The notes under the pieces are model-generated. The model made no database searches. It was not told the DNA's origin and worked only from the letters and a program-made list of their open reading frames with translations. Source: Perna viridis (lineage: Eukaryota). From it: DNA of 64,000 nt. A program made the translations under genes and the position numbers. Shown in pieces: positions 1 to 63,108 of this stretch (position 1 is its first letter; the number at the start of each line of letters is the position of its first letter). The stretch lies in assembly GCA_037379345.1 (NCBI GenBank), contig CM074517.1:10292001-10356000 (forward strand), written 5' to 3'.

Positions 1-859
1 GCGGGTGTTGCTGTGGAGCAGGACATGCTTACCCTTTTTAAGCACCTGATTTTGTGGGAGCTTATATAACTACTACTTCAGTTTTGATTCTTTTATCTTC
101 AGTTTTTATTTATAATTCTTTTTATTCAGTTAGCTACATTATGTATGTAGATCGTCTTTGTTTCATGCATTCACGTTTAGGTATTTTTTTTTATTTTGAC
201 GTATTTGAATCATCCCACTGCTTACACTTCGGTATTTTCTCCATTTACATCGACTTATCGCCCTTTGGCCTAGTCCTAGATTGCTATGACGGCCGACGGC
301 TGATTTGTCAGACAAGCGTCGGAGCTTTTCCCGTATCAAAAACACGGAATTTGACTAAAGGGTTGAAATTCACAACACTATTGGCATGTTTTTCACTTTT
401 ATGAAATGTTTTACAAAATTTCAATATAAATTCCATATCACAGTATATTGTTATTTTTTTTTTTTTTTTGGCTTCCTCAAACACAAATTACTACAGAAAA
501 GCATATATGAATTATTGTTGAGAGTATAAACTTTCATTTCATATCTGGTTTAAACATTCCAAGAGCCATTAAAGTAATAAATTTTGATATCATACCGCAC
601 ACCAGATTTGCTCTGCAAAATCCAGGGTTTTTGAAATGGATAAGCTCTGACGTTCCACGGCCCAGCTTGTTTGGGTAATCTCGGACTGCTTTTGGTCATT
701 CTTAAAGATATAAGCAAAGGTCGTTGTCGCCGCTGACTAAGCAGGCGCGGATCTAAGGAAAAGCGTACCGCGCGTACGCCCCTTAAACTGAGAAAAATAA
801 ATGCATGAAATCTGGATTTCTTGATTTTTTTCACAAATTCTAACAATTTTTTTTCTTAC

Positions 860-883
860 CTTGCTTTGCTCGGTCTGTTTCAT
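860..883 (-). CDS. Possible first coding micro-exon (MKQTEQSK) of a divergent gene running off the left edge
   Basis: Minus-strand ATG at 883, donor AAG|GTAAGA at 860/859, in a CpG-rich region. Confidence 0.3.
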
Positions 884-1239
884 CGACCCGCCCCTGAATG
901 CCTATGCTCCTGGTTGTTAGTGGATAACGTTCAGAATGGTTACTTTTAGTTGTTGTTGTGTTCGCCGGTTATTCCGTGCTTTTCGGTGTTAATGTCTCAG
1001 TTTTCAAACTTGTTTTACAAGCCGATATCCTTCAACCTTCTCTTGTTTACCACCTTTAATATTTTTTTGTGAAGTTTCACAAAGTTAGGTTTTGAATTAA
1101 AATAGAAAACTTTGTATTTTTTATTTTATACAAAATTTTGGCATAACTTACCAAAAGACAGCCTGAAACATCCCATTAAAAATCTGGTTAAAACACCCTT
1201 TTCTTGATCCGCCCTTGAAAATGATATACAGTTTGATGA

Positions 1240-1258
1240 AACACACACACACACACAC
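1240..1258. repeat. (AC)n microsatellite
   Basis: acacacacacacacacac. Confidence 0.9.
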
Positions 1259-1504
1259 TTACGTTTCAAAACTTTAAAAAACTAAAGTAAGAAAGTACAT
1301 CTTTTCAAAGATATATGCTATCTTTTAAAATGATAGCATGAAATATTGGTTTTCATTAAATATTTCTCGCATTACTACCGGTAGATAGTCCTTGGTTTGA
1401 CAGAAAAAAGGAGCGACTTTTAACTCAGAAAGTTCAGTTTCAAGGTCTTAGGTCCAAGAAAAAAAACCTTGGATGGATACAGTCTTTTGAGTTTTTACTG
1501 TTCA

Positions 1505-1600
1505 ACATTTCGCGGGCAAAAACTTCAGTATGGGACACTTCCGGAATCCGAATTTGTTACTAAAATTACGTCACCAGGTGCATTTCACCGCCATCTTTGA
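1505..1600 (+). promoter_or_regulatory. Probable core promoter of the TALE gene
   Basis: Clustered motifs within ~95 bp: E2F-like TTTCGCGG (1508), ETS ACTTCCGG (1537), CRE/ATF-like TTACGTCA (1566), YY1 CCGCCATCTT (1588). A strong donor AAG|GTAAGT follows at 1687/1688. Confidence 0.6.
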
Positions 1601-1687
1601 ACTTGTCACTGAAGTAGTTGAAGTAAAAAGATGAGCTAAGCCATTATACTACATGAAATAAACGTTAAACGGCTGTATGTGATGAAG
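1575..1687 (+). other. Probable non-coding first exon (5' UTR) of the TALE gene; start approximate
   Basis: Consensus donor downstream of the promoter motifs. The acceptor at 8815 lies upstream of the ATG, so an upstream exon is required. Confidence 0.55.
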
Positions 1688-3149
1688 GTAAGTGCTATAA
1701 ATCTTTCAAACCCCTTACTCTGTGCAATGTCAACAAAAGTTCATCGAGATTTCTTTAAGAGGTGTAAAGTTGAGAGGTCACCGGTTTCAACTTCCATAGG
1801 ATTGACGGTTTCTAAAAATAAAATAAAAATAAATATGTGTCGTCTTATAGTGAATATTCACCTGCATAAAAAATAAGCAACTTTTATACAGTTTTATTTG
1901 CTTTAGTTGTTTATATATACTACACACTGGTCAAAGGAGTAGGTCTCGCCAACCGATTTTTCGTCCTCTCCTGTGAAACAAGTTCATTGCCAAAATTTAA
2001 GGAGATTGCTGATATTTCGCTCCCAAAAATGAGCTATCATACTACAATTTTCAATGAGGAATAAAATTTTGGTGAGTAGATTTGCGAGAAGTGCTTCTGT
2101 CTCGAATATGGCAAGATCTACTCCCTTACCACAATCCAGTATCACCAATTGGAAATAAGTCCTAGCAGGGACAGAATTTAAATTTACTAGTAGTAGCCAC
2201 CTGGGCTTCTGCATTTAAAAAAAATGGAAGCCCAGACCAATAGTTAAGGGCTCAGGTATTTCTTGTGAGGCCTGTGATGTGGGCAAACCCGCTAGGGGTT
2301 TGGGGCATGCCTCCCTCCCAAGATAATGTTCAACTTTTGAAAGCAAATTCTGCATTCTGAGAGTACATGGAGACCTTTTCAGAAGCTAAAAATACAGCAT
2401 TTTTTTTACTCTTTCAATTTCCTTTTTTTGTATGTAGTTTCAAATTCAAACTGAAAGAAATCCTCCCATCTTTTGATATCATTTGCCATTAAACCATAGA
2501 AAAATTAAAAAATAAAAAATATTTTGACCCATGTACAGACAATTTTTGTATTATCATTGAAGAAAAGTACATTGAATTATGTACTATTTTGAAATCTGTA
2601 ATTAAAATAAAGAAACAATTTCAACCCTGACAGACTTTTAAAGTTCTATTTTATTGGATATGTGGTAACAGTTGTTGTTGGAATGAACTTTTAATTTTAA
2701 CCATGCCATCGTCGGTTGTGTTAAGCCACAGGTGCCTGTTTTCCCATTCTGTCAAAAAACTTCTTGCCCTCTTTGAAGATTCATAATTGGAATAATATTT
2801 TTGTTTGTCTTCAGTTGTTATTCTTTTTTTCCAAGGGTTTCACCCCTTGCCAGAGGTGCTCAGCCTCAGCATACCCGACACTCACTGTTATTTTGTAATC
2901 TTCAAGTCAACAATGGTTGTATTTGTTGTCTTTGGTCAATAAGACTTCTTACCTAAATATGAAATACTTTTCTTGCGTTATTTATTTCTTTAAGTTCAAC
3001 ATTCTATGGACTACCACTACCAGAAAGATTCATTCTATTCCATCTACATAAGAGGTTGGAATATTCCCTTTCTCCATACTCCGAACTTTATTTTGGAGTA
3101 CTTTCTTGAAAACCGTATGCTTTGTCATACTAAGAAGTGGGGGAAGGTG

Positions 3150-3228
3150 GGAGTTCTTGGTTTGATCCCTGGCCAAGTCACATATCATAGAAACAGCTTC
3201 TCCGCTAAGCATGCATTATTTAGAAGAT
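3150..3228 (+). mobile_element. Degenerate tRNA-derived SINE fragment (Meta-domain-like)
   Basis: B-box-like ggtttgatccc followed by gcttctccgctaagca. Confidence 0.4.
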
Positions 3229-3504
3229 ACATGTACACAAACTTTTTTTTTTGGTGCAGATAGAGGATATTGTGAATGATTGGGGTGGCATACCTCAGGG
3301 GTCAAACTGTTAGAGAAAAACAAGGAGAAGTGACTCCTCTTTTAGAGAGACATCAGGGAGAAATGAAGAATAGAGTCCTTCTTGAACATGCATCATTCGC
3401 ATGTTTTTTTTGTTAATTATATTTCACAATGAAAAAAAGTCATTGCAGTGAAATTGAGATTTGCTTTTTAAATGTAAAGCAAGATGAATTTACATGTTTA
3501 TGGT

Positions 3505-6160
3505 TTTTACATGTTGCTCACCTGGCCATCATCTGTCTTTGTCTTTTTCAAACATCTTCTCCTCTGAAAAAAACTCACCATTTTGTTACCCTTTTATTGC
3601 AGCTGAACATCGGCTGTTTCCCTAGAGACTTTTCCCAAAATGTTGAAAAATGTTTTTCCCAAATGAAGGAAAATTCCCATTTGTCAGGTATAATTTTATG
3701 AAAACTAGGTAAGAAGCCAGCGAAATGTTCCTCAAGGTGTGGTTTCCCGGCCTGGTACTTTATCCACTTCTGTGGAATGTTTTTTGGCAAATTAGTCATA
3801 ACCTAGTGAATATCAGGAGTATGTATTTGTCTTTGGTTTTCAGTTCCGGATCGGCATATGACGTTTCTGTCCCCTTTACCATATTTTCCAAATGTGTTAA
3901 AAATATGGCAAAAATTTCCCAAAAATAAAGGGTTGAGCTTCTTTTAAAACAAGGAACAAAATCACTGGTATTTTTAACAATCCGTGTGTGGGGATTTTTG
4001 ATCTGGCAAAAAAAACATGACCACTGTTACTAAAAAGACAATAGGGGTCAAATTGCGGAATTTTGCGAATAACTCAAAAACGGTTGAAAATTGCTCAGCA
4101 TGATGGACCCATGTCAATTTTTCAGAAAGATCTATTGATGAATGAGTTATGGGTCCTGTAATGAATTTTTTTTCTCGAATTTTACATTTCCAATTTTAAA
4201 AATCTTTTCCTCTGAAACTACTGGATAGATTGAAACAAAACTTAGCATGAATGTTATGTACACCATCTTAAACTAACTGTGCGTGGGCGATCTAGTGAAA
4301 AACATGGCCCCACCTTACTAAAAATAGACCATATGGGGCAAATTTCAGTTTTATGCACATAACTCAAAAACAGTTGGGTTTAGCTGAAATCTGACAGGAT
4401 GTAAAATTGTTAAGCATGATTTGATGGACCTATGCAGAATTTTCAGAAAGATTCGTTGCCAAATGAATGAGTTATTGGTCCTGAAATGCAGTTTTTCCCA
4501 AATGTCGCCGGTCCAACGGTCCTGACAGGTAAAATTGTTGTCGGACTGACAAATTATAATCTTTTTCCAGACCAAATGTCCGACATGTCCTGTGGTCGGT
4601 TCAGGGATTTTTTTTTTCCACGTGCAAGATTACAATTAAATACCATTGCCATTTCCGGTTTTAGACCAATATTTTTTTTTTAACTCAAAATTGTGGAAGG
4701 GGCAATCCCTGGAAAGTCTTTAAAATGTCCAATAAATTTTACATTTCCAATTTTAAAAATCTTTTCCTCTGAAACTACTGGATAGATTGAAACAAAACTT
4801 AGCATGAATGTTATGTACACCATCTTAAACTAACTGTGCGTGGGCGATCTGGTGAAAAACATGGCCCCACCTTACTAAAAATAGACCATATGGGGCAAAT
4901 TTCAGTTTTATGCACATAACTCAAAAACAGTTGGGTTTAGCTGAAATCTGACAGGATGTAAAATTGTTAAGCATGATTTGATGGACCTATGCAGAATTTT
5001 CAGAAAGATTCGTTGCCAAATGAATGAGTTATTGGTCCTGAAATGCAGTTTTTCCCAAATGTCGCCGGTCCAACGGTCCTGACAGGTAAAATTGTTGTCA
5101 GACTGACAAATTATAATCTTTTTCCAGACCAAATGTCTGACATGTCCTGTGGTCGGTTCGGGGATTTTTTTTTCCACGTGCAAGATTACAATTAAATACC
5201 ATTGCCATTTCCGGTTTTAGACCAATATTTTTTTTTAACTCAAAATTGTGGAAGGGGCAATCCCTGGAAAGTCTTTAAAATGTCCAATAACAGAGGCTGA
5301 ACAAAGCCAAAGGAAGAAGAGATATGAGGAAAATCATCCCGATCAGAAATTCAGTAAAAGCTGGGATAGGAATATGGACATGTTTATTCTTACAGTTTAT
5401 CTAATTAAACAAATGCAACTCATTTCGAAAGGCAGAGACTGCTGAAATGTTTTTTTCCTGAATTTTAAATTTCCAATTTTAAAAATATCTCCTCTGAAAC
5501 TACTTCATTTGTAAATGGATTGAAAGAAAATTTAGCATAAATGTTATTTAGAACATCTTTCACAATTTGTGCATGGGGATTTTTGATCTTGTGAAAAACA
5601 TGGCTGCTATATTAAACATGGACATGGAGGTGAAATTGCAGGATTTTGCAAAGAGTTGGCTTTATCTAAAATCTGTCAGAGTAAAGAAGATCCCTTAACA
5701 GATGAATGAGTTGTAGGTACTGAAATGGATTTTTTTCCAGAATTTTTGTATTTCCAATTTTGAAAACCTCCTCCTGAACTACTGGGTGGATTGTAACCTA
5801 ACTTGGCATGAATGTACATTACAATATTCTTGACAATCTTTGTGTGGGGATTTTTTATTTGGCAAAAACCGTTGAAGATTTTTGGAAATAACTCTAAACA
5901 AATGGGTTGAGCTAAATTCTGACAGGGTATAACTGATCAGCATATGCCGAAATTCTCGTAAAGATCTTTTGACCAGTGTTATTGCCCTTTAAAAGTAAAA
6001 AAAACGACCGAGAGATTTGTTTTATGATATGAAAACCCAGTAGATAACTAAGATTCTCTCTATTGATTGAAGGGTTGTTGTGACAAAAGTTCTGCTTTAG
6101 AAAGCTAAAAAGACTATTTTTGACCAGGTGAGCAATTCAGGCTCTCTAGAGCCTCTAGTT
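3505..6160 (+). mobile_element. Helentron/HINE-like element with internal degenerate tandem array and nested inserts
   Basis: Subterminal inverted repeat gctcacctgg (3516) / ccaggtgagc (6124); 3' hairpin aggctct-ct-agagcct then ctagtt; repeated ctcctctgaaactactgg...aaacttggcatgaatg units. Confidence 0.7.
4178..5290 (+). repeat. Near-perfect tandem duplication, 2 x ~557 bp
   Basis: Identical ORF translations ending at 4351 and 4908; copies differ by ~4 transitions and poly-T length. Confidence 0.95.
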
Positions 6161-8300
6161 CATAAGAGCTTAATTTAATGCAAAGGTGATCTTTCCCTCT
6201 AATAATTTCAAAGGGGCCAGAAAAAAGCATTTTCCTGATGTCTGGATATTGATTTAAGTGAAAGGAAATGGATCTGTGTGAAGTACCACAAAGCCCAATT
6301 CTCTAAAAGGAAAGTTTGGATTGATTTTTTAATGGAACCACTATGGAATAAGGGGCCAAAAAAGGGTCACTTCCATTCTCGTTAAATACTTTTTTATGTT
6401 GAACTACAGTTTGGTAGAGAGACAAATTGTTTTTGTCTTGTCCATGTGTCCAACACAAAGTTAGTCAGCGCACCTCCTCTCAAACTACTTTACAGAATTT
6501 TATGGAACTTACCAAAAATCCTCAATTACCTTGTCAGTGCAACTCCTCTGAATCTACTGAAACAAATATGTTCAGGACAGTTTGTGGGACGAGGGGAGAC
6601 ATGTTTTTGCAGACAAACTTAACTGTATCAAGCTTGAATGGTGTATCCATTGCATACAGTACTTGCTCTACTTTTGAAGGGTTCAAATTCTGTATCTTGT
6701 GAAGCATTGTACCATAGTAGGAGTGTGTTCATATGGTGGAATAACCCCCAAGCTGTAGTAAACCATTTGAAATGTCAGGGTTGCTTGCCTCAGTCACTGA
6801 CAGTTTATTTGCTCTAAGGAGAATAACCTGCAAGTTAAATGTGATGTGCAACTTTAAAATTATATTTTGCCATATGTTTGCATTTATTGGCATTTGAAGA
6901 AAATTTTAAACAAGTAGGGTATTGTATGCTTTCTTTTTTACCCTGTTTAATCATTGAAAAGACTGAACAAATATAATCATTGTATCTAACTGTTCTTTAT
7001 GCCTGATGGTTGCATATCCTGTGAAATTACTTGTCAGATTCCCCCTATATTTGGTGTAAATCTAGTGCCAATCCCTGAGCATGTACAATTTGAGCTTTCC
7101 TTCAAAGTCTAAAATTGTCAGGAATCCTAGAATACCATATTACTAGTTCACCAGACATACCAATATACATTGTACATGTATTACTGGGGTATGAATGTTG
7201 CCTGTCTGAGAGTATGATCTTGAAATGCAATCAAATACATTCGGCTTTCCAATAGAGGCCGAGCATTGAAAACTAACTTAACCACAACAGACTCATACCT
7301 CCTGCCAAACATCAATATAAGGATAATGGGAAAAGGTATTTATAGAATCCTGCTTGTTAATGTTTGAAGAGAAGCTATTGTCAAACTTGACCTAAATGAC
7401 TTCCTAGGGAGAGTAGAATCATGGTCACATTAGACAGGTGACCTTAATGTACAGATTAATTTTACATACATGTACATGTAGAATGCACTACAGAAGTTTT
7501 TTAAGACAAGTTATTGTTGAATACATGTGGTCACTAAGACAGGGTTGACAGACTTTTTATCCAACTTGCAATTGATGTATTTGTTATTGTCTTTGTTTCA
7601 TCTGAATTTTCTTCAATTAAGATTTATACTCCCTTTGCAGACTGTTATTGATGGCTATAAAAGGTGGATATCTTGAATAAATATGACTCTCTAAAATGCA
7701 TTAAAAGCTATAAAATAGTAGAAATTGCTTTATTGTGTATTGTTACACAAAATTTTTGTTGCATTTACCTGTAACTTCTGTTTAATAAATCTGTAGGTGT
7801 ATGGCTACTCGTTTAAATCATAAATCTATTTGTATAACCTTATGTTCAGTGAGAATCTAGGTCACATGATAAAGCTGTGTATTACCCTTGCTGGAGAAAA
7901 AAAACTGAAATACTTCAAATTATTTTGTGTAGACTTTTTGTGTGTGTCAGGATTTGATAATGGATTCACACAAAGGTAGTAAGTGCTCAGCCTAATATTA
8001 AACTACTGCTAATATTTAAACTAACAGCAACACAAAAGGAGAATGGACAAAATTTCACTACTACAAACTGTAATATAATAAGTGTTTAAAAATAAGTGTT
8101 TTAAGTAGAGTATTTGGTTCATGCAGTTGTTGTTTTGGCAGATAATAAAAATAAGACTTACAACATAAGGCGGAGTTAAAAGTTTGAGTTGTAGGTTTTT
8201 TTTATTCTGTTGTAACATTTTCAATCAATCATTTTTAAAAAAATTATTTACTAAATGTATATATGTTTTCTGAACTGAGGAAGGTTATCAAGTCTTATTT

Positions 8301-8780
8301 ACCACTGGACACTTTCTGGTAAGGTTTTGATTTGAAGAGTCACCACTGGACACTTTCTTGTGAGGTTTTGATTTGAAGAGTCACCACTGGATACTTTCTT
8401 GTGAGGTTTTGATTGAAAGGGTCACCACTAGACACTTTCTTGTGAGGTTTTGGTTGAAAGGGTAACCACTGGACACTTTCTTGTGAGATTTTGGTTGAAA
8501 GGGTCACCACTGGACACTTTCTTGTGAGGTTTTGATTGAAAGGGTCACCACTAGACACTTTCTTGTGAGGTTTGGATTGAAAGGGTCACCACTAGACACT
8601 TTCTTGTGAGGTTTTGGTTGAAAGGGTCACCACTGGACACTTGTGAGGTTTTGATTGAAAGGGTCACCACTGGACACTTGTGAGGTTTTGATTGAAAGGG
8701 TCACCACTGGACACTTTCTTTTGGGGTTTTGGTTGAAAGGGTCACCACTAGACACTTTCTTGTGAGGTTTTGATTGAAAG
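8301..8780. repeat. 41-bp minisatellite, 12 units (two carry a 4-bp deletion, last truncated)
   Basis: Unit accactggacactttcttgtgaggttttgattgaaagggtc; starts at 8301, 8342, 8383 ... 8629, 8666, 8703, 8744. Confidence 0.97.
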
Positions 8781-26900: not shown

Positions 26901-29900
26901 AAAAAAACTATTTCTAGGACAGATCTTGGTTTATCAGTGACAAGTAAATGTTTTATTTATACATGTGACTAAAAGGAAAATAAGATATAGTGTTAATTGT
27001 ATAAAGATGCATATTTAGTTGCTATACAAAGCGTTCCAAATTTAGGGTGTAGATGTTGTCACTTCAAGAATGACACGCTTCACAATTGTGAGTACCAAAA
27101 AAGTGCTAAGTACATCATAAGTCTCTTTATATATTACATATATACAAGGAGATACTAATTAGGTCAAGGAGAACATCATTAACAAATCATACAGATGAAA
27201 CCCTTGATGTTAAAAACTTTTTTTGCTAAATTGTCAATGACAAGGATGTGTGAGATTTGCAGATCTTTCAAAATCCTTTACTGAGCTGTACATTGACTAT
27301 CCACTGAACAATCCAGCTATAGGAAAGAGTGGAGAATCTTTGGAAGTGGTCACTTTAACATGCTATGCTAAGATCATAAAGCACATTGACACATTTTTAT
27401 AACATAGTTAAGCCCCAAACTTAGCCTGATTATTATTACAAAAGGTTCTTTATCTTTTAGATATTACAATATTTTGAAGAATTCAGATGAAGAGCACTTT
27501 ATTTACACAGTTAATTATTTAATGATTTAAGTGAAATATTACTAGACAAGAGGACGGCTGATTATAATGAAGATACATGTATGATCATTTAAAAAAAAGA
27601 CAACTTTTGTTTGTATTTTTATTGGGTTTTATAAACTTATCTCATTCCCCAAATTTCTCTACAAACCCTACAGTGATATGTTTAACTACTAAATGACTGT
27701 AGAATGAGCTGATACAGCTCCCAATTTTCAGGGCCAGCTTACAAATTTTTGGCTTCTTTAGAATTAAATGCTATTGAACTTAGTATTTCTTGGTTAAAGT
27801 AAGTACTTCAGTGTAGGTGAAAATGTTTTAGACATACAATAAAACAGTTACAGCTCAAGTAATTAATATAAACAAATTACCGTATTATTTGAATTAAGAA
27901 TTATTTTGGAGTTAAGAAAATGACTAAAAAATAATTTGTGAAGCTGACAGTCCTTTCCGTCAAAATTCTTAACAACTAGCTCGAATAATAGATGACCGGA
28001 TAGGATTCAACTAGCCTGAAACTAGAAAAGTTCATTTCACTAGCCCCAATCAATTTTTACTAGTCCCGGGCATCGGGGGAGTGGCTAAAGGCGAACACTG
28101 AGCTAACCCCAACTAGTAACTGGGGTTAGTCTTGCCAGCATGGCTAAGGGATAAGGTTAGTTATATGACATAAGTCAAGAAAACATACTAACTCCCCTTA
28201 GTCATGACGGCATAACTAACCACTTTAGTAGGGATCAATTTTTATGCCCCTGCAACGATAAGTTGGGGGGCAATTTGTTTTACACCTGTCCGTCCATAAT
28301 TCTGTCCGTCCCATACGTTTTCCACACTTTTTTTTGAAAATCTTTGAAGATATTGAACTGTTTTTTTGTATGTGAGTCTTTCATGATTAGTTACAGATCG
28401 AGTTAGAGTTTCGTTCCGCTACGCTGAGTTTTACCAAAATTATGGGTCCTGGACTTAAAAAATTCCATGGAAATAGTTTTCCGCACTTTTTTTGTAAACC
28501 CTTGAAGATATTGAATTGATTTTTTGTATGCGAGTCTGTCATGATTAGTTACAGAATGAGTTAAAGTTTTGTTCCGCTACACTGAGTTTTACCAAAATAA
28601 TGGGCCCTGCACTTTAAAAATTGTATTGAAATAATAGTTTTTCGCTTTTTTTTTTGTTAATGCTTGAAGATATTTGACTGGTTTTTGGTATGTGAGTCTG
28701 TCATGATTAGTTACAGAATGAGTTAAAGTTTCGTTCGGCTACGCTGAGTTTTACCAAAATAATGGGCCCTGCACTTTAAAAATTGTATTGAAATAATAGT
28801 TTTTCGCTTTTTTTTTGTAAATGCTTGAAGATATTTGACTGGTTTTTGGTATGTGAGTCTGTCATGATTAGTTACAGATTGAGTTTAAGTTTCTTTCAGC
28901 TATGCTGAGTTTTACTCAAAACCATATGCGGGGCATCATTTGTGTCTCACAGACACAATAACACATCTGACAAAGTGCATTTTACAATTATGAGTTATGA
29001 TGTAGCTTTATGAAGGTTAAATGCGGGGGCATCACTTTATCTAGTTTTATATTATTTTTTACTTTTAAGTCTTAATTTAAATCTTAAATCCAAAATAATT
29101 AAAAATTCATATAATCCCTTGTTATTACTTTGTGTAATATAAAAGGGGGTGGGGCACAATCAAAGTAGGGGGAAGTGATGCACTCCTAATAGTTGTTAAT
29201 AGGTAATGTACAATTTTTTTTTGTGTACAGATAGGAAAGAAATTTAATTTAATCCATCTTTAAAATTTGTGTTTTGTCTGTTGGTATCAGTTGCAAAAAT
29301 TTAATAATTTTTATTTGAATGTAACATTTTCTATTCAATTTGTATATTTGCTTAATGAAATAATGCATTCCAATATTACATTCAAATGATAATTTATACC
29401 AAGTGATAAATTATACCAATTGAATGAAAAAAGTTACATTCAAACTAAAATTAATACAAATTAAATAACATATAATATTGCATTTTAATGAAAAAATATA
29501 CCAATTGATAGAAAGTATTACATTCAAATGAAAATTATTAAATATTTTGGAATAAATACAATGTACCATGCCATAGTTTGTACCATGAATTTTAGAATCA
29601 ACAAACTCATTGTTTATGCAGAATTTACATATTTTATGTTAAGTATTGAGCTTATCACTGTGACTAAATAGCTGTTCATGGACTACCAAATTTCATGGTT
29701 TTGTTTCAGTTAAAAACAGACTTATTATTTTATTTGGCCTAATATTATTCTGCTGCTTTAGTAATTGTAGAATTACTTGCTTTTGTAGTTTCTCTCCTGT
29801 TGAGAATTGTTTACTGTGGTTTATGTAAAACATAATAATTGTAATAGAAATCCATAGCTTAAATTTGATTTGAAATTTTTTCATTGATGCTTTCGCTAAG

Positions 29901-35900: not shown

Positions 35901-38094
35901 GCAAAATACAACATACTAAAGATATTTTGTACCAAAAATATTTTAAAAAAGAAGTACACAAATAGTAAATATTAAATCTTTGATGTTTTGTCTTGTTGTA
36001 GCCTGCGACGTTCCAGGTTCCTAACTCCCAGAATCAGGTGACAACATCAATGGGAGGCCCGATGGTTCCGGGTATGACACAGATGGAAACACCCACCAAA
36101 GATCATAAATTTGTTCCTATGGATAACATGATGGTAGGACTTTCAACAGAAAACAAGTATTTTAATGCCGAAAACACCTGGATCTTGTCATTTATATATA
36201 AATATATTTTAGATCTTAACTCATCAATTTAATGAACAATCACAAATTTTTTTTAGAGAGATGTTTGCTGTTGTTCCCCCACACTCCCATGCTCTACAAT
36301 TACTGACTGAACTAAATCTCACACACTTAGAACAATACTTACATGAGCAAGATGTATGTAAAAGATGTTTAACGTCTTTGTCACATTCTAGTTATGATAT
36401 CATTTATATGATGTTTGCTAATGCAAAGTCATCTTAATGAAAGGTTTTGATAAACATTTAGAGATGTACATATGATTGTAAAAAAGATGATCAGGGTCCA
36501 GGACTTTAGTAGGTTTCAAATAAAAAAATCCTACTGATATAAGCTGTAGTTATTCAGTAGAGATTCAGTGTTTTGTTTTGAATGTGGACCAATGTTGATG
36601 AACTATTATAAGTCCTGAATCAGAAATGGAGGGTCTGGACCTCTGATCTACGCTAATTTGAACCCTGTTTATATTTATAAACTTTTCCATGAAAATAGTA
36701 AGAAATATAGATATAATGTTTTGATGTATTACAGATACAGGGTGGAATGTTTGCTTCTCCAATGGCCAAGAAGAACTTAGAACTGTCAGCTTTTGGTAGT
36801 CAGTTTAAATCATTAAAGGAAATATCAGAATACAATGACAATGGTAGTCTTGTTAGTAGCAGTAGTAACCATAGCAACAAATCTGAGTCAAAGAAACATC
36901 CAAGTTTACCAAAGGAGGTAAGAGTAACTGATATTATTCAGTTCAATGTTTGATTTACAAGTTTGAATGAAGAGTGATAGACATTATGTATTACATCAAA
37001 CAAATAGGTAACTTTCAATTTTAGACAAAATTTTTCAGTCCATCCTTGATTTTTACTGGTTTGGGCAAGGGCAGTACTCTATGGTAAGAGATGAAGTGAA
37101 TTATGCAAATGCTTCAATACGCATGGAAATGTCTATTTTGACTCAAAGGCGTGTAAGCATGAGTATTATTTGTAAATATTTGGTATTTCCTTATATTGAA
37201 AACTGTCACAAAATCAGTGAAAATGATAGTTGACATTTATTCATTGACCTATATATATAGGACAGATTCTACAGCAGCTGTTTATCAATCACTAATGTCA
37301 TTGACTGATATTGTCATGATAGTGGACACCCCTGGTGTTAATTATGACATCACATTGATAATGTGAGATCAACCCCACTGGCCAGTCTGTTTGTATATTA
37401 CTTTTTTTGGGGGGAAGTGGTAAAGGTCATTCTGTTATTGCTATTCTGTATTGAACTGTCTGAAGTTTTCTTTCCATACAAAAACTATATGGATACTACT
37501 CAAATTTTTCAGAATGGATGTAACTATACTCTAATAAATAGATCTATGCCTTAGTCTTCATAAACCCCAGGTCTGTCCCACAGGTTGCCTTAGTCTTCTA
37601 AATCCCAGGTCTGTCCCACAGGTTGCCTTAGTCTTCTTAAACCCCAGGTCTGCCCTATAGGTTGCCTTAGTCTTCTTAAGTCCCTGGTCTATCCCACAGG
37701 TTTGCTTAGACCATAAAATACCATTTCTGTTTTATTGTAGCTCCAGGTTTCTATATAGAAAAGCACAAACCACTGAGTGCCAAACTCAGTGATGATTGAT
37801 TTCTAAATTTTGCATGGGTCAGAACTTTTACATTGGATTGATAATCTCTATTAATTGATCACTAAATGATGATTCAACACAATGATATTTATAGGTAATT
37901 TGATTGGTTTTACTTTATAGGCTGTAGCTATTATGTTGGACTGGTTACGACAACACAAAGATAACCCATACCCAAATGATGATGAGAAAGCTATGCTCAT
38001 CAAACAGACAGGACTGACAATAAACCAAATCAATTATTGGTTCACCAATGCTAGAAGGAGAATCCTGCCAAAATGGGCTCAGCAGTGCAAATAA
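8825..38094 (+). CDS. Divergent TALE-class homeobox transcription factor (MEINOX-like domain plus TALE homeodomain), 6 coding exons, ~1042 aa
   Basis: GT-AG exons join in frame (135+2386+119+132+183+174 nt; intron phases 0,1,0,0,0). The protein contains HPLFPLL (MEIS/PKNOX HR1 motif) and the homeodomain [61 protein letters not shown] with the TALE PYP loop. Confidence 0.9.
11865..12477 (+). mobile_element. Helentron/HINE-like element, same family as 3505-6160
   Basis: tttttagctcacctgg ... ccaggtgagcg, hairpin aggttc-tggg-gaacct, then cttgttt. Confidence 0.75.
12968..13586 (+). mobile_element. HINE-like element with ~160-bp internal repeats (aggtcaaaggtcaaggtcac family)
   Basis: aaattggttt(c)cggag...aacttttg units at about 13022, 13155, 13312 and 13474; ends ctcttgtttt. 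Confidence 0.6.
15771..15802. repeat. (ATTT)8 microsatellite
   Basis: Direct reading. Confidence 0.9.
19085..19960 (+). mobile_element. Degenerate HINE-like repeat with internal ~150-bp units
   Basis: Repeated aaggtgcca...ggaag...gattgatttt units; the 3' end (aactgtatc.ag.ttgaatggtgtatcca...gggttcaa) is shared with 6620-6690. Confidence 0.5.
23781..26166 (+). CDS. TALE gene coding exon 2 (2386 nt; S/P/T-rich then M/Q/N/G-rich region, start of MEINOX-like domain)
   Basis: 811-aa ORF in the track; acceptor tttttag ends at 23780; donor gtatgt at 26167; encodes [11 protein letters not shown]. Confidence 0.93.
28239..29046 (+). mobile_element. HINE-like element carrying four ~160-bp satellite-type monomers
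   Basis: tttttatgcccc ... ggggcat inverted repeat; gtcc microsatellite near the 5' end; monomers at about 28318, 28477, 28638 and 28799; 3' hairpin tgtgtct-cac-agacaca. Confidence 0.8.
29290..29552. repeat. AT-rich foldback element with ~60-bp imperfect arms and internal subrepeats
   Basis: atttaataatttttatttgaatgtaa... / ...ttacattcaaatgaaaattattaaat. Confidence 0.65.
31120..31238 (+). CDS. TALE gene coding exon 3 (EKIRSRQEQ...[19 protein letters not shown])
   Basis: Acceptor ttttcag, phase-1 join, donor gtttgt; resembles the second half of the MEIS-B/HR2 helix. Confidence 0.85.
36002..36133 (+). CDS. TALE gene coding exon 4 (PATFQVPN...PMDNMM)
   Basis: Acceptor ttgtag, donor gtagga, 132 nt open, phase 0/0, GC-richer than flanks. 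Confidence 0.8.
36735..36917 (+). CDS. TALE gene coding exon 5 (start of homeodomain, ...[10 protein letters not shown])
   Basis: Tandem in-frame acceptors ending at 36734 and 36740; donor gtaaga at 36918. Confidence 0.87.
37548..37709. repeat. 39-bp minisatellite, ~4 units
   Basis: Unit gccttagtcttcttaaaccccaggtctgtcccacaggtt at 37548, 37587, 37625 and 37664. Confidence 0.93.
37921..38094 (+). CDS. TALE gene terminal exon (homeodomain helices 1-3, stop TAA)
   Basis: Acceptor ctttatag; translates [18 protein letters not shown]...[18 protein letters not shown]. This exon is missing from the ORF track. Confidence 0.95.
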
Positions 38095-44009: not shown

Positions 44010-44760
44010 GTATACCCCCAAAAACAATCCAAGCCTTCCTTGGTTGGGGGGGGGGGTATGGCAAGTCGTACAATTTTAAAGAGATCCATTGTTTTTAAGT
44101 AAAGTAATGCCAGGACATAATGAAAATACTTGTCCTGTCCCCTTAGTACTGTATGGTTCAAGCCACAGCCCAAATAATCAATCTCAGCCTTCCTTTGGGG
44201 GTATGGCACCTTCTGGTACTATTTTAAAGAGATTCATTCACTTGTACATGTATTAAAGTTTTTGTCTAAGACTTCATGAAAATTCTTGTTTCTGGCCCCC
44301 AATTCCTAGATCAATCAAGTGACAACTCCTAAAATCAATCCAAGCTTTCTTTTTGTGGAATTGCACTTTGTGGTATAATTTCGTGTTGATCCATTCACTT
44401 ATAGTCAAGTTATTTTCCGGACATCATAAAAATGCTTGTTTCTGATCCTTTAGTTCCCAAATGGTTCAAGTCACAACCCCCATAATCAATCCGTCTTTCT
44501 TTTTTTTAGGATAGCATCATGTGGAACTATTTCAAATATATCTATTCACATATAATCAAGTTAGTGTCCAGATATCACAATATTGCTTGTTTCTGACCCC
44601 AATTCCTAAATGTTAAAGTGACAACCTCCAAATCAATCCCAACCTTCCTTCTGTGCTATGGCACCTTGTGGTATAATTTCATAAAGATCAGTATACATGT
44701 TATTCGAAACCAGGTTGTCCCCAACACCGGACGATGACAATGCTTACAACAGCGCAATAC
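44010..44760 (-). mobile_element. Inverted copy of the 19085-19960 repeat family
   Basis: Repeated aatcaatcc(c)aagc(c)ttcc...tggcaccttgt units, the reverse complement of the 19.2-19.8 kb units. Confidence 0.5.
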
Positions 44761-49582: not shown

Positions 49583-52500
49583 CTATAAATAAAACGGTAT
49601 CCAAATGTAAAAAGAAAAAAAAAACAAACAAATTAATTAGGTTGTCCTTCAAAAAAAAGTTTTTAAATGCCAGTTATAAAGATGATAATAACCAAGAAGA
49701 AGGAATCAACTTCCTACATCATTCTTCATTATGATATTACTCTTCAGGTTTAAAATCTTTTTTTATGCAAAAACAACTTTACTAAGCCAAAAAAAAGGGG
49801 TATGACATTTAAGGTTGTCATATTAACAGAGGTGAGTAAAACTCATTTGGACAGGTAAAAGTTAAAACAAATCTTGTTCAATTTCCAACAACCTAGATTT
49901 CAATTTCGGCAAGGAGAATTTTCATCAACTTGCCTGATTGGACAAGATTTATATAATGTTAATGTCATACCCTGCATTTTATTGTAATACTCAACATACA
50001 TGTAACTATTTTGGGACTAACATAACCGTAAGAACATAAAACTAGCCAAAAAATGTATAATTGCTTTTGAAAAACAGGTTAACTGTCCGTCATAGAAGTG
50101 AACTGAAGACACTTTGAGGACAACAAATCAATTCACAAATTATATTAATGCCATGCCCATACAAAATGCTTTGTAACCATAGCTTTCTCTAATGTAGGCT
50201 GTTCCCATATGCAAAACCATTAAAAAATCATAAAATCATAAAAAATTCCACATCATTGTTTATAGCTTGGCCAAGACTCACATAATGAACCTAATTTCTT
50301 CCCAAACCTGCTTGTAGGGCACTTATAAAAATTCAAAACCAAATCATTGAACTCAATGGTATGTATTTAAACTTACTTCCCAATCTTGTGAGGGAAGGTG
50401 GATGGAGTAATTTTGACATGGTTAGTTGACTGCCCTGTTTTACTGATTGTCTGTACAGGTAAAAACGACTGAGTGAGCACTGATGAAAGACTTGTTGCTG
50501 TTGTTGTAGAGACCAAGTTATGGTTGGACGAATTCTTGTTATTATTAGTTAACGGAAAATTCAGCTGTAGAACCGTAGCTGCTGGTGAAGTTGAAAGCCC
50601 TGTGGGTTTACTGTCAGTGATTGGTCCATTAGTCAACGTAGCTGAGTTTAACGATACAGGTTTCGATAATGAAGATGACGATGCCAATGACGAAGATGTT
50701 GATGAGAGTAAAGATGAAATAGCACCAGTTTTCTTGGTCTGAACTTGTGTGGTATTCATTACTGCTGATACAGCAAATTTAGCACTAGCCGAGTCTAACA
50801 TAAACCGTGATGTTGGCTGTGAAGAAAATGACTGATCTAATCCAGAGCACCCTGCAGTTTCAAATTCACAAGTGGTCTGTTTCAATAATTGTTCTTCTTG
50901 ATCACGCTGCATTTGGAGAAGTTGTTCCTTGTGAGACTGAAAACTCTCCATATTGAATTCCTCTGTTGGAGAACTTCGTACAGATCTATCTCTAAAGTTA
51001 TGGTCTTCATCTGTTGGTGAATGTGGACGAAAGTATGATCTGTTGGGTGGAAAAAATATCAAGTATATATCTTGTATAAAAAATTTGAACAAAACAAATT
51101 TTCTATCAAACCAGCCTACCTGATCACACAGAAAAGATAGCAGCAGGGAAATCGAAAATTGTTCATTCAGCTCTAAATGAACTTGAGAGAAAAGGGTTGA
51201 AATAAAAAAGTTATAAATGTTGTGAAGCAGCTCAAATTAAATTTAAATAAGAATAATGAATTAGTGAACAATAGCCACATGTAAAAAGTTAAAAGGAACT
51301 ACATATAAATAAAGTATAAATAAAATGTGGGGCTCAATCCCCTTAATTTTTTTTTACGTTTTGTTTATACTTTATTTGAATGTAGTTCCTTTTTACCTTT
51401 TAAATGAGGCTATAGTTCACTTATTCATTATTCCCCTTTTTGCTGTAAATAAAAAATGGTGCTGTTTAATGAGATTGGGTACTTAATCCATAAAAGATAT
51501 TTTTAAACAACTTGTTTTAATATCCACCACTTACATTTTCTTTTCCCTGATATATGAGTTATAATCTTCCATTAATGATAATGATTTGTTTGATCTATGC
51601 AGTGAATCATCCCATTCTGAGAAAGCTCTATCAAATAGAACTCTGAAAAACAAAGCATAATTTGATAAGACAAGTTAAGGCACAAGGAAAGTCTTGAACC
51701 CTTTTGGCACTTATGCTATTCATACAGAAAATGCATTTAGTCACTTGTCATAATTAAGCACAACTTAATGATCAAAATACCTATTAGCATACTAAAAAAA
51801 CATTATTAGCATACAATATTAAAAATACTTAATATCTAGACAAAATGATTATATTTTGATAAAAAAAAAATAGTTAATGGAAAATGCTTTTCCATAAATG
51901 CATGTACCAAAAACCAGAGAAGAGTAATTGAACTTCAATTTAATTTCATGTTAGATTAATTTGAAATAATTGATATGATGTTTTTTTGACTGTGAAAAAA
52001 GCAAATTGGTTGTAATTACAAGAATTTAACTTTGCACTATTGGATTTTCAGCATTTACTTAAGTCAGATTTTCTCAATAATATACAAATTCGAATTGTGT
52101 TGTTGCCAACAATGACTAAGTCATAATAACGCCCCCAAAAAATATGTAGTGTTTTCTGATCACCCTCTCTAAAATTTTGTTGGATTGGTAGGTACGGATT
52201 TAAAATATTTTTTTTTTTGTTTTAAATTATGAAATGACACCAAACTCAGAATACAATAAAAACCAAATCTGCAAAGATTAAACATGCAATAGACTTAATT
52301 CATAGAAAAAAATCTTAGGCTTTATTTCCTTGGTTTTTTTTTCTGTATATCAGCTGGCAGGCTTTTTAAATTTTTCTTTTTCAAAATCACAAATAAAAAC
52401 TTTTGGGTATGGGGTCTGAAGGAGGGTTGATAGGTGACCAGAAACATAATAATTTTTTTAGGCCTAAAAAATGCACACAATATTTTTTTAATATGACAGT

Positions 52501-61500: not shown

Positions 61501-63108
61501 GTAATTAGATTTTGGGCATCCCTATTCTTGTTGTTTACCGATTTTCCCGCCAAAAAAGTGTAAATAAATGTCATCCATTCTTTTATCAATTCTTGCCCCG
61601 TGCAGGTCCGGGTGTTAAAAGAATAGGCCTGCAGCAACACTAAGCTTGTCGTAAAAGGCGACTAAATAGTGCTCAAAACCCTAGCCGGGGGATATGGCGC
61701 TTTGCCCACAGAGCAACTGGGATGTGTGCCCAGGTGGTTGAATGGGGTACCCCTGGCGTGTTACATGCTGGGGTTGTCAGGCTATAATACGGCGAACCTG
61801 ACCGCAAACCATAGTGGTGCACCGTGTTGGGAAAGATGCCACTTTCCTTGCACGTTAAAGAACCCTACTGTGGTATTCTCCCGGAGTAGGAACCATAGGC
61901 TCCGCCACAGGAGGCTAAATTGCCCGACCCTACCCACCTCTCCCTATTTCCAGTGGCAATCAAAATTTGTCGACCCCACTGTACTTGTGTCCCATCCCTT
62001 TTTCATTTCATGTTCATTTTATCATCAATTTCATGTTCATCATCTGAATATAGCTGAAATATTGCTGCTCGGACGTTAAACCCCAACAAACAAACCAAAC
62101 TTTATCAATTCTTCCATCAGACACTTCCTGATGGGATAATCATTGTTAATTGGATTTAATATATTCTGTTAGAAGGTAAATCTGATTCTGAATGTATCAT
62201 CATATGGTTTAAAAGGTCTGTGAAGCCTGTATGTAGCCACATGCACATGGCCATGATTGTGTTTACCTTTGACCAGATGATGAGTTTTGATTGGCTCAAA
62301 AATATATTTACATCTGATTGACATCTCCCATGATGATATTGTGAGATCAATTTGTCTAATTACATTTGATTGGCTTCAGTCATAAATTGGTTACTGTCAT
62401 TCAACTCTGACCTGGTGTCAACACAGCTGTTTAATTGGAGAGAATATCTGTTGCTGTCAAACTTTCTATCAGTTTTAACATACAAAACCTAGGTGTCAAG
62501 AAAATCGCCAACAGGTTATTTTTGTCGCCAGATCAAATTAAAATCGCAAATTGGGACTTTGGCATAACCCTAATAATTCAGTCCTATCTCCGTATCTGTT
62601 TCAATGGAGTGATCGCATGGAATGTAATTTAACGACTGGATTATTCAGGTAAACACTGGCAAAGCCCAGTGCTATCTATGTATAAAAATGAGAAATGAGG
62701 AATGGTTGCCAGAACGAGATCAGAGTAATTCAGAAATTTCCAAAAAAGATGCTACGGTCGGCAATTCACCTTGAAAAAAAAAGGGTCGGTTGGGAAACCG
62801 GAAACACACTTATTTTTTTTGTTTGGCCTCACTAAAAAAAAAACAATAATTCTAGTTTGAAGATATTTGAAGTAATGTTTTTGTTCAAGTCTGTTGGTCC
62901 GTATCCAAAACAAGCATCATTTTGGTTTTTTTTCGTCCACTGAAGTTTTACCTTGAATATGGATGTACTGTTTTTGTGTTTTGAAGTCTCCTTTGTACAG
63001 ACGGTCATATTCTTCATTGATAGTGTCAACTTCAGGAATAGGAATAACAAGAGCTTCAGCCGTCCCATACACCTGCTGGGCTGAGAGGGCTCTTTGAAGA
63101 TGGTGCTC
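49510..63108 (-). CDS. EPC1: Enhancer of polycomb homolog (NuA4/TIP60 subunit), 5'-partial; 13 exons, 671 aa in window
   Basis: EPcA motifs (EHHLQRALSAQQ, PDYDMDSEDE, VYDYWLNKR, NNPYVAFRRRTEKMQTRKNRKNDETSYEKMLKLRRDL), EPcB motifs (DPDGQFAFRR, CIGFARRRLGRGGRVLFDRA), LDSASAKFAVSA and C-terminal VAMDVT*. All exon phases are consistent. Confidence 0.96.
49798..49972. mobile_element. MITE with 12-bp TIRs
   Basis: gggtatgacatt / aatgtcataccc. Confidence 0.65.
50377..51039 (-). CDS. EPC1: EPC exon (EPcC-like helix and S/T-rich region)
   Basis: 663 nt within the 239-aa ORF, phase 2/2. Confidence 0.92.
51252..51432. repeat. Foldback inverted repeat with ~77-bp arms
   Basis: aataatgaattagtgaac...aaatgt is the approximate reverse complement of acgttttg...gttcacttattcattatt. 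Confidence 0.8.
51535..51642 (-). CDS. EPC1: EPC exon (VLFDRAFSEW...IREKK)
   Basis: 108 nt, phase 2/2. Confidence 0.9.
52611..52759 (-). CDS. EPC1: EPC exon (PILERLGNWPW...LGRGG)
   Basis: 149 nt, phase 0/2. Confidence 0.93.
53051..53137 (-). CDS. EPC1: EPC exon (GMSLSD...CHYQA)
   Basis: 87 nt, phase 0/0. Confidence 0.92.
53989..54159 (-). CDS. EPC1: EPC exon (DEMVVKKKREYRKRKHK...ALSP)
   Basis: 171 nt, phase 0/0; basic NLS-like stretch. Confidence 0.9.
54478..54586 (-). CDS. EPC1: EPC exon (YAAEDFEG...GVWSQ)
   Basis: 109 nt, phase 2/0. Confidence 0.9.
55246..55326 (-). CDS. EPC1: EPC exon (TLLEMIKRREK...MDK)
   Basis: 81 nt, phase 2/2. Confidence 0.92.
55389..55567. mobile_element. MITE with 11-bp TIRs (PIF/Harbinger-like ends)
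   Basis: gggctattcca / tggaatagccc. Confidence 0.65.
57164..57231 (-). CDS. EPC1: EPC exon (NRKNDETSYEKMLKLRRDLNRA)
   Basis: 68 nt, phase 0/2. Confidence 0.93.
57550..57657 (-). CDS. EPC1: EPC exon (AHPLILQ...MQTRK)
   Basis: 108 nt, phase 0/0. Confidence 0.93.
58084..58179 (-). CDS. EPC1: EPC exon (VVTLQEAK...NKRLRL)
   Basis: 96 nt, phase 0/0. Confidence 0.93.
58443..59081. mobile_element. MITE-like element of the taggcc...ggccta family; related pieces at about 48367-48600, 52131-52467 and 63780-63995
   Basis: taggcc...gctataacccgac / gttgggttatagc...taggcctta inverted ends. Confidence 0.5.
59297..59442 (-). CDS. EPC1: EPC exon (CGMEQEIPDYDMDSEDE...GSGQQ)
   Basis: 146 nt, phase 1/0. Confidence 0.93.
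61595..62100 (+). mobile_element. SINE-like retroposon, full length (506 bp), antisense within an EPC intron
   Basis: 13-bp TSD tttatcaattctt (61582-61594 and 62101-62113); GC-rich body; gcacgttaaagaaccc (Deu/Nin-domain-like); 3' tail ...ggacgttaaacccc(aaac)n. Confidence 0.85.
62952..63108 (-). CDS. EPC1: EPC exon (EHHLQRAL...YIHIQ)
   Basis: 157 nt, AG/GT flanked. Confidence 0.93.

Follow-up and report, generated by a model that had tools for sequence, protein, structure and literature searches.

LP-SINEs are known from scallops, oysters, abalone, periwinkle and medfly (Matetovici et al. 2016, PMC4758252). Their ~70-bp LP ("LINE promoter") head is common to the elements Nimb-17_LMi, I-3_DR and RTE-9_CPB, and according to section 10 of the same paper it can replace the tRNA head in Saccostrea SINEs. 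The head was put forward as a promoter, with a parallel to Pr77 mentioned, an activity that was proposed and never shown; the main text gives no structure for it and contains "pseudoknot" and "covari" 0 times. Bipartite short elements more generally derive from RTE, Ingi, Vingi and R2 and have been linked to 5' ribozymes (Kojima 2018, PMC5786205).

The element described here lies in the window, i.e. the whole 64,000-nucleotide stretch of Perna viridis DNA that was analysed (Table 1). By its sequence it adds a member to the published LP-SINE kind, with a head fold for which no description was found. The original prediction of an undescribed motif holds for the fold and fails for the sequence domain, which matches the LP head of PMC4758252. 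It has TSDs of variable length, 3' short tandem repeats in the form of a (CAAA)n tail, and the ~70-bp LINE-derived 5' head with which an autonomous I-group LINE (L321) also starts. Compared by eye with the Chlamys LP-SINEs in the Fig. S2 text of that paper, it has the same head words and spacing, and shares TSDs, a microsatellite tail, a mollusc host and the link to an I-group LINE; it differs from the published LP-SINEs as a mytilid family of 506 bp, and the present analysis adds the fold and the presence in viruses. Neither of these was found described in the literature covered, which included the PMC11481361 supplement and had Repbase, Dfam, most subscription journals and bioRxiv supplements outside its scope. 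The tail word GACGTTAAAC (window 62072-62083) recurs in the coremin motif of plant viruses shown in PMC10520033, a likeness that is probably coincidental.

Table 1. Features of the window and contigs carrying the viral motif (positions are those of the window)
Feature	Location	Strand	Remarks
5' TSD, 13 bp	61582..61594	+	exact repeat of 62101-62113
LP-SINE-type short retroposon, 506 bp	61595..62100	+	inferred: probably antisense within an Enhancer-of-Polycomb-like gene, in an intron
First bases of the element, G and C	61595..61596	+	2 nt ahead of P1; from TSD junctions
P1 hairpin, CCCG 61597-61600 / CGGG 61609-61612	61597..61612	+	8-nt loop TGCAGGTC (61601-61608), complementary to GGCCTGCA (61626-61633) with one G-U, holds the 5' pseudoknot strand 61602-61608
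Linker, with conserved AGAAUA at its end	61613..61625	+	first part expandable by 60-140 nt in other families
3' pseudoknot strand GGCCUGC	61626..61632	+	covariation
Second domain: P3, internal loop (5' G..U, 3' UAAA), hairpin GUCG-UAARAGG-CGAC (61648-61662)	61636..61673	+	CACTA 61638-61642 / TAGTG 61667-61671 enclose GTCG-TAAAAGG-CGAC 61648-61662
Likeness to Nin/Deu-type SINE core word, short stretch	61850..61865	+	by eye against the Lsa_Nin and Tgr_1 lines of the PMC4758252 supplement
3' tail: stem-loop, TTAAAC, (CAAA)n	62041..62100	+	layout as in two I-group LINE tails and other LP-headed short elements
Pfam E_Pc_C domain	50376..51236	-	
812-codon exon, TALE-homeobox-type gene	23781..26219	+	relatives with PF05920/PF00046; conserved in molluscs and other spiralians
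Tandem repeats (unit)	8301..8780 (41 bp), 13053..13501 (158), 28328..28921 (162), 37547..37709 (39), 44279..44689 (151)		
Tetravirus-type capsid contigs	L183, L188		
RdRP contigs	L185, L189		L185: Shuangao toti-like virus
Noda-type capsid contig	L187		Hubei tombus-like virus 21
S-domain coat protein contig	L358		only new member from relaxed viral patterns (25 + 6 + 87 distinct matches)
Contig encoding one further protein	L182		two tandem motif copies
Invertebrate iridescent virus 6 (IIV-6)	L184		after 206R, 171 nt ahead of next ATG

The original prediction of a TSD-bounded element without recognisable Pol III boxes was borne out, with an exact 13-bp TSD enclosing it and neither a tRNA nor a canonical A/B box pair. 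ARAGORN found no tRNA in the element (0), a Rfam scan of the window yielded noise only, with no tRNA, 5S or 7SL match, and by box consensus the head lacks any B-box-like word with less than one mismatch as well as an A box in the canonical place; the tRNA-like head with A and B boxes of tRNA-derived SINEs (SINE2) is therefore missing. A neighbouring gene shares 99% identity with a Mytilus protein over a 111-residue region, which places the host among the mytilid mussels.

The family is abundant, with 7,203 exact matches to a head 22-mer and 11,412 to a tail 22-mer in the source genome (723 Mb). Its copies include a dense cluster at G000:C1:3330000-3550000, where ~27 of the first 100 head matches listed lie within ~0.2 Mb. 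Among 158 distinct full-length copies from the loci sampled, the first base is G in 121 and exact flanking repeats of 9-16 bp occur in 88, of which 52 have the TSD adjoining this first G. Loose ends in assembled contigs from four sequencing runs pile up at 61595, in data that hold neither RNA-end nor strand information. Untemplated G was not enriched at the 5' junction: in a small sample of 8 copies with one extra base, this base was A in 3, T in 3 and G in 2. Upstream flanks are common to three copy pairs, one of them alike over >40 nt, as expected of a larger duplication.

The predicted P1 stem, the pairing of its loop and the second module all lie where they had been placed. Taken alone, the window copy folds no better than shuffled sequences (z -0.97 for 61596-61675), and the second module by itself is mildly better (z -2.45); since a single copy is no more stable than chance, it is the relatives that support the fold rather than its folding energy. 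Two changes are private to the window copy; the majority of copies have AGCGCTA/TAGTGCT, a 7-bp P3. From the geometry of H-type pseudoknots, the AGAAUA linker is predicted to cross the P1 minor groove.

Relatives were collected by searching metagenome contigs, viral contigs and prokaryote genomes with the 18-base hairpin word, which gave at least 122 stretches from the metagenome set and 9 from the viral set (at least 134 matches in 42 rough clusters). Upstream of the word, the order P1, loop, AGAAU(A), loop partner and P3 is kept in nearly all matches listed, and the similar heads in other invertebrate retroposons that the original prediction mentioned were thereby found, as well as in the published Chlamys copies. 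Five relatives (L089, L112, L117, L122, L229) are short elements with TSDs and LINE-type tails that start with a purine and two C before CCGTG, and in these five as in the window family the element edge lies at the P1 base. In six others (L087, L100, L108, L116, L118, L136) the linker between P1 and AGAAU is longer by 60-140 nt with no loss of complementarity between the pseudoknot strands; across families, the conserved word stands ~50 to 190 nt from the start. Tandem motif copies occur in L182 and L095. The LP-headed elements L227, L262 and L131, which come from soil or peat sets and possibly from a microbial eukaryote host, measure only ~190-200 bp and have their tails laid out in the same way.

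L321 is the 5' end of a full-length LINE of I-group layout, whose ORF1 carries a zinc knuckle and whose ORF2 combines endonuclease, RT and RNase H. Its young sister LINE in the source genome (L322) has a 5' UTR homologous to that of L321 from just past the head, with a different starting module. L322 (positions 801-6875, G000:C8:23537700-23543775) and its copies L323-L332 form a young I-group family with an ORF1 of 491 aa and an ORF2 of 1247 aa, 96-99.7% alike among copies, with 126 ORF1 matches in the source genome and a 5' module of its own of ~190 nt, which had no match in Rfam and which may resemble RTE 5' UTRs. The SINE and both LINEs, along with several of the other short elements, have tails in which a stem-loop is followed by TTAAA and a microsatellite. 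The exact partner LINE of the SINE was not found, L322 having a tail of the same layout and different sequence and a pattern search with tail variants returning nothing.

Prokaryote genomes contributed 66 hairpin-word matches, against ~58 expected from a hand-estimated chance rate, and only 7 of the 66 have the fold (L217, L227, L229, L241, L254, L257, L262). These seven matches resemble eukaryotic retroposons, in contigs that look contaminated or chimeric. Eukaryote-type LINEs or short retroposons in contigs titled as bacterial genomes or MAGs, likely through contamination or chimerism, were also noted for L321 (G001:C4:518900-525000) together with L217, L227, L229, L241, L254 and L262.

Covariation among these relatives indicates that the head is an RNA fold composed of a pseudoknot and a stem-loop domain, as the predicted structured, non-tRNA leader implied. 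Pairing was assessed in 24 hand-picked diverse examples (17 host, 7 viral), with the register taken from the AGAAU anchor and P1 chosen without pseudoknot information. The cells of the 7-bp pseudoknot were paired in 79% of cases versus 59% when shuffled (0/20,000) and 36-46% when slid. The host-only subset gave 1/20,000; the virus-only subset was weaker (180/20,000), and the stem-only rule mis-anchored P1 in 2 of its 7 members. In a MAFFT alignment of 16 non-viral sequences, both sides had changed in 5 of the 7 pseudoknot pairs, and the covariation score was 0.32 versus 0.15 (0/500); relatedness inflates tests of this type, but the slid controls gave only 0.05-0.14. The Chlamys copies of PMC4758252, outside all tests, add one more complementary strand pair. 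Invariance of the terminal hairpin in the alignment follows from its use as the search word; a search with the loop unconstrained brought up only UAARAGG and one UAUGAGG together with the pseudoknot domain. The P1 loop sequence varies freely, and many unpaired bases are invariant. A phage-like contig (L381:2000-2050) has a good domain-1-type pseudoknot with AGAAUA and without the conserved hairpin or a model match, possibly by chance.

Several unrelated RNA viruses, of tombus-, toti- and tetra-like kind, carry the same two-domain fold in the 3' UTR, on the sense strand. A covariance model built from non-viral sequences only scored 8 viral loci (7 distinct motifs; Table 1) at 38-70 bits, compared with at most 27 for chance word matches. 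In the RNA-virus contigs the motif lies on the coding strand after the last ORF, its hairpin 52-248 nt past a stop codon, with 14-119 nt left before the contig ends. This sense-strand placement, together with the copy between two genes of IIV-6, indicates that the motif acts as RNA. On balance, we lean towards the view that the head represents an undescribed class of two-domain pseudoknotted RNAs that set or guard 5' ends and are traded among LINEs, SINEs, RNA viruses and an iridovirus. As a block to exonucleases it would be the first such RNA native to animal genomes, present there in thousands of copies each; that it forms a new self-cleaving ribozyme class is less likely.

Our preferred reading, held tentatively and by analogy to viral xrRNAs, is that the head blocks 5'-to-3' exonucleases, for example Xrn1/Xrn2, and does not itself cut. 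Host transcripts running through a copy would be decapped or cut and then trimmed as far as the P1 base. What is left would be a stable RNA that needs no promoter for its fixed 5' end, and an I-group (Nimb-like) LINE could supply the reverse transcriptase that binds its LINE-type tail. A block of this type in viruses would yield a short stable 3' fragment, as with flaviviral and plant-virus xrRNAs. The covarying pseudoknot, the position near the start of viral 3' UTRs, the tandem copies and the edge at the P1 base are consistent with such a block, which would also be harmless in introns; by a weak proxy, full-length copies lack an antisense bias. The head shares with xrRNAs (ST9a/Tombusviridae class 3, coremin, flavivirus 1-2) a compact pseudoknot with long loop pairing, besides placement, tandem copies and 5' edge: tandem xrRNAs are described as common (PMC8374639), and the stop site of the ST9a xrRNA is given as the 5' base of P1 (PMC11702639). 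Plain frameshift pseudoknots are reported not to stop Xrn1 (PMC10321173).

However, the secondary structure is unlike xrRNA classes 1-3 or coremin as described in PMC12397905, PMC10520033 and PMC8374639, and it gives no evident ring around the 5' end. The head has a single short P1 and no P2, in place of the P1-P2 hairpin, L2B/J1/2 network and loop pseudoknot of class 3 (PMC12397905), and lacks a three-way junction. Nor does it show the coremin (xrRNA-C) layout of a 4-bp hp1 with YGAD-type loop, an 8-10 nt spacer and a second hairpin (PMC10520033); its loop is UAARAGG and its hairpin is the downstream part, not the 5' part. Unlike xrRNAs, it carries an extra conserved downstream hairpin domain and sits in host retroposons, and its resistance is a predicted property. 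Further, a terminal GC stem is generic in stable RNAs (the sister LINE L322 also starts with one), the purine start fits a transcription start equally well, and the invariant UAARAGG loop looks equally like a protein-binding surface.

Such a surface would also suit a cap-independent translation element or a binder of ribosomes or initiation factors, a reading that we regard as possible and rather unlikely. It would aid uncapped or tail-less viral RNA and LINE mRNA, and would dock non-coding SINE RNA on ribosomes near newly made LINE protein, as proposed for Alu. The motif lies in 3' UTRs of tombus-like, toti-like and tetra-like viruses, and literature abstracts describe 3' translation enhancers as common in tombusvirids. 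In IIV-6, it stands between 206R and an ATG 171 nt downstream. The head contains a near-invariant 18-nt hairpin, which resembles the conserved 17-nt core of BTE enhancers. With BTE and PTE, the likeness extends to a short invariant hairpin in a tombus-like virus 3' UTR, whereas the sequence and layout differ and the head is also 5'-terminal in non-coding retroposons. [quoted passage not shown]

The original prediction of a self-processing RNA was not supported; a new class of self-cleaving ribozyme that would cut 1-2 nt 5' of P1 and free the element from read-through transcripts is in our view doubtful. The exact 5' edge across families and the many invariant unpaired bases would suit it, as would the 5' ribozymes described in R2, RTE and Ingi/L1Tc (PMC5786205, PMC6765202). 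Like the HDV-like ribozymes of R2, RTE and L1Tc/Ingi (Pr77), the head is a short conserved module at the extreme 5' end that is common to different LINEs and short derivatives; unlike them, it has no nested double pseudoknot or HDV fit and occurs inside viral 3' UTRs. Rfam gave no meaningful match for the window, 16 relatives or the L321 head. With descriptors applied without a positive control, no HDV, hammerhead, twister, hairpin, pistol or twister-sister core fitted: the HDV double pseudoknot had 0 fits in 17 of 18 stretches and one chance-level fit in L184, and the other five had 0/18 each. A twister-sister likeness of the P1 loop was only local and was rejected because this loop is freely variable.

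An exchange of heads between LINE clades was also taken to favour cleavage, the LP head being common to Nimb and RTE elements (PMC4758252) and swapped between L321 and L322. However, the L321/L322 swap is not evidence for catalysis, since the L322 head has no HDV-like support; an HDV-like ribozyme at the L322 start was rejected for want of a Rfam match or descriptor fit and with a z of -0.14. Self-cleavage is disfavoured because cutting 5' of the motif would separate RNA-virus genomes from their 3' ends, and because head-bearing copies show no antisense bias in genes, where purging from sense-strand introns would be expected. Reported ribozymes in viral UTRs are mostly 5' or paired (PMC13725137). 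The strand evidence uses base skew as a weak proxy for transcription direction (its correlation with splice words has an r of 0.3, and 4 of the 5 Pfam matches to host genes agree with it), which gave 13 versus 9 for short loci (80/84 loci) and, for full-length copies, 17 sense-like versus 14 antisense-like of 100 in 80 10-kb loci. One full-length copy, whose head has two substitutions, stands in sense orientation within an intron of a GBF1-like gene. PDB searches on the exons of L505 returned 0 matches.

That the head is solely a DNA-level internal promoter, as the name "LINE promoter" suggests and as its 5'-terminal position, its purine start and the replaceability of the tRNA head by the LP head (PMC4758252) would allow, is very improbable, since the compensatory pseudoknot changes and the occurrence in viruses without a DNA stage make a promoter alone insufficient, and the start-to-word distance varies several-fold besides. 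Promoter activity may be a second role of the head, by analogy to Pr77. The probability remaining beyond these four readings falls to roles not listed here.

According to a 2021 review, xrRNAs had by then been characterised only in viruses and are expected in eukaryotic genomes (PMC8374639). For an exonuclease block, the LP head offers a concrete 80-nt xrRNA candidate with natural compensatory variants. If the block is real, it would explain the fixed 5' end of SINEs that lack a Pol III promoter and would recast the "LINE promoter" head as an RNA device, a functional RNA module exchanged between retroposons and viruses.
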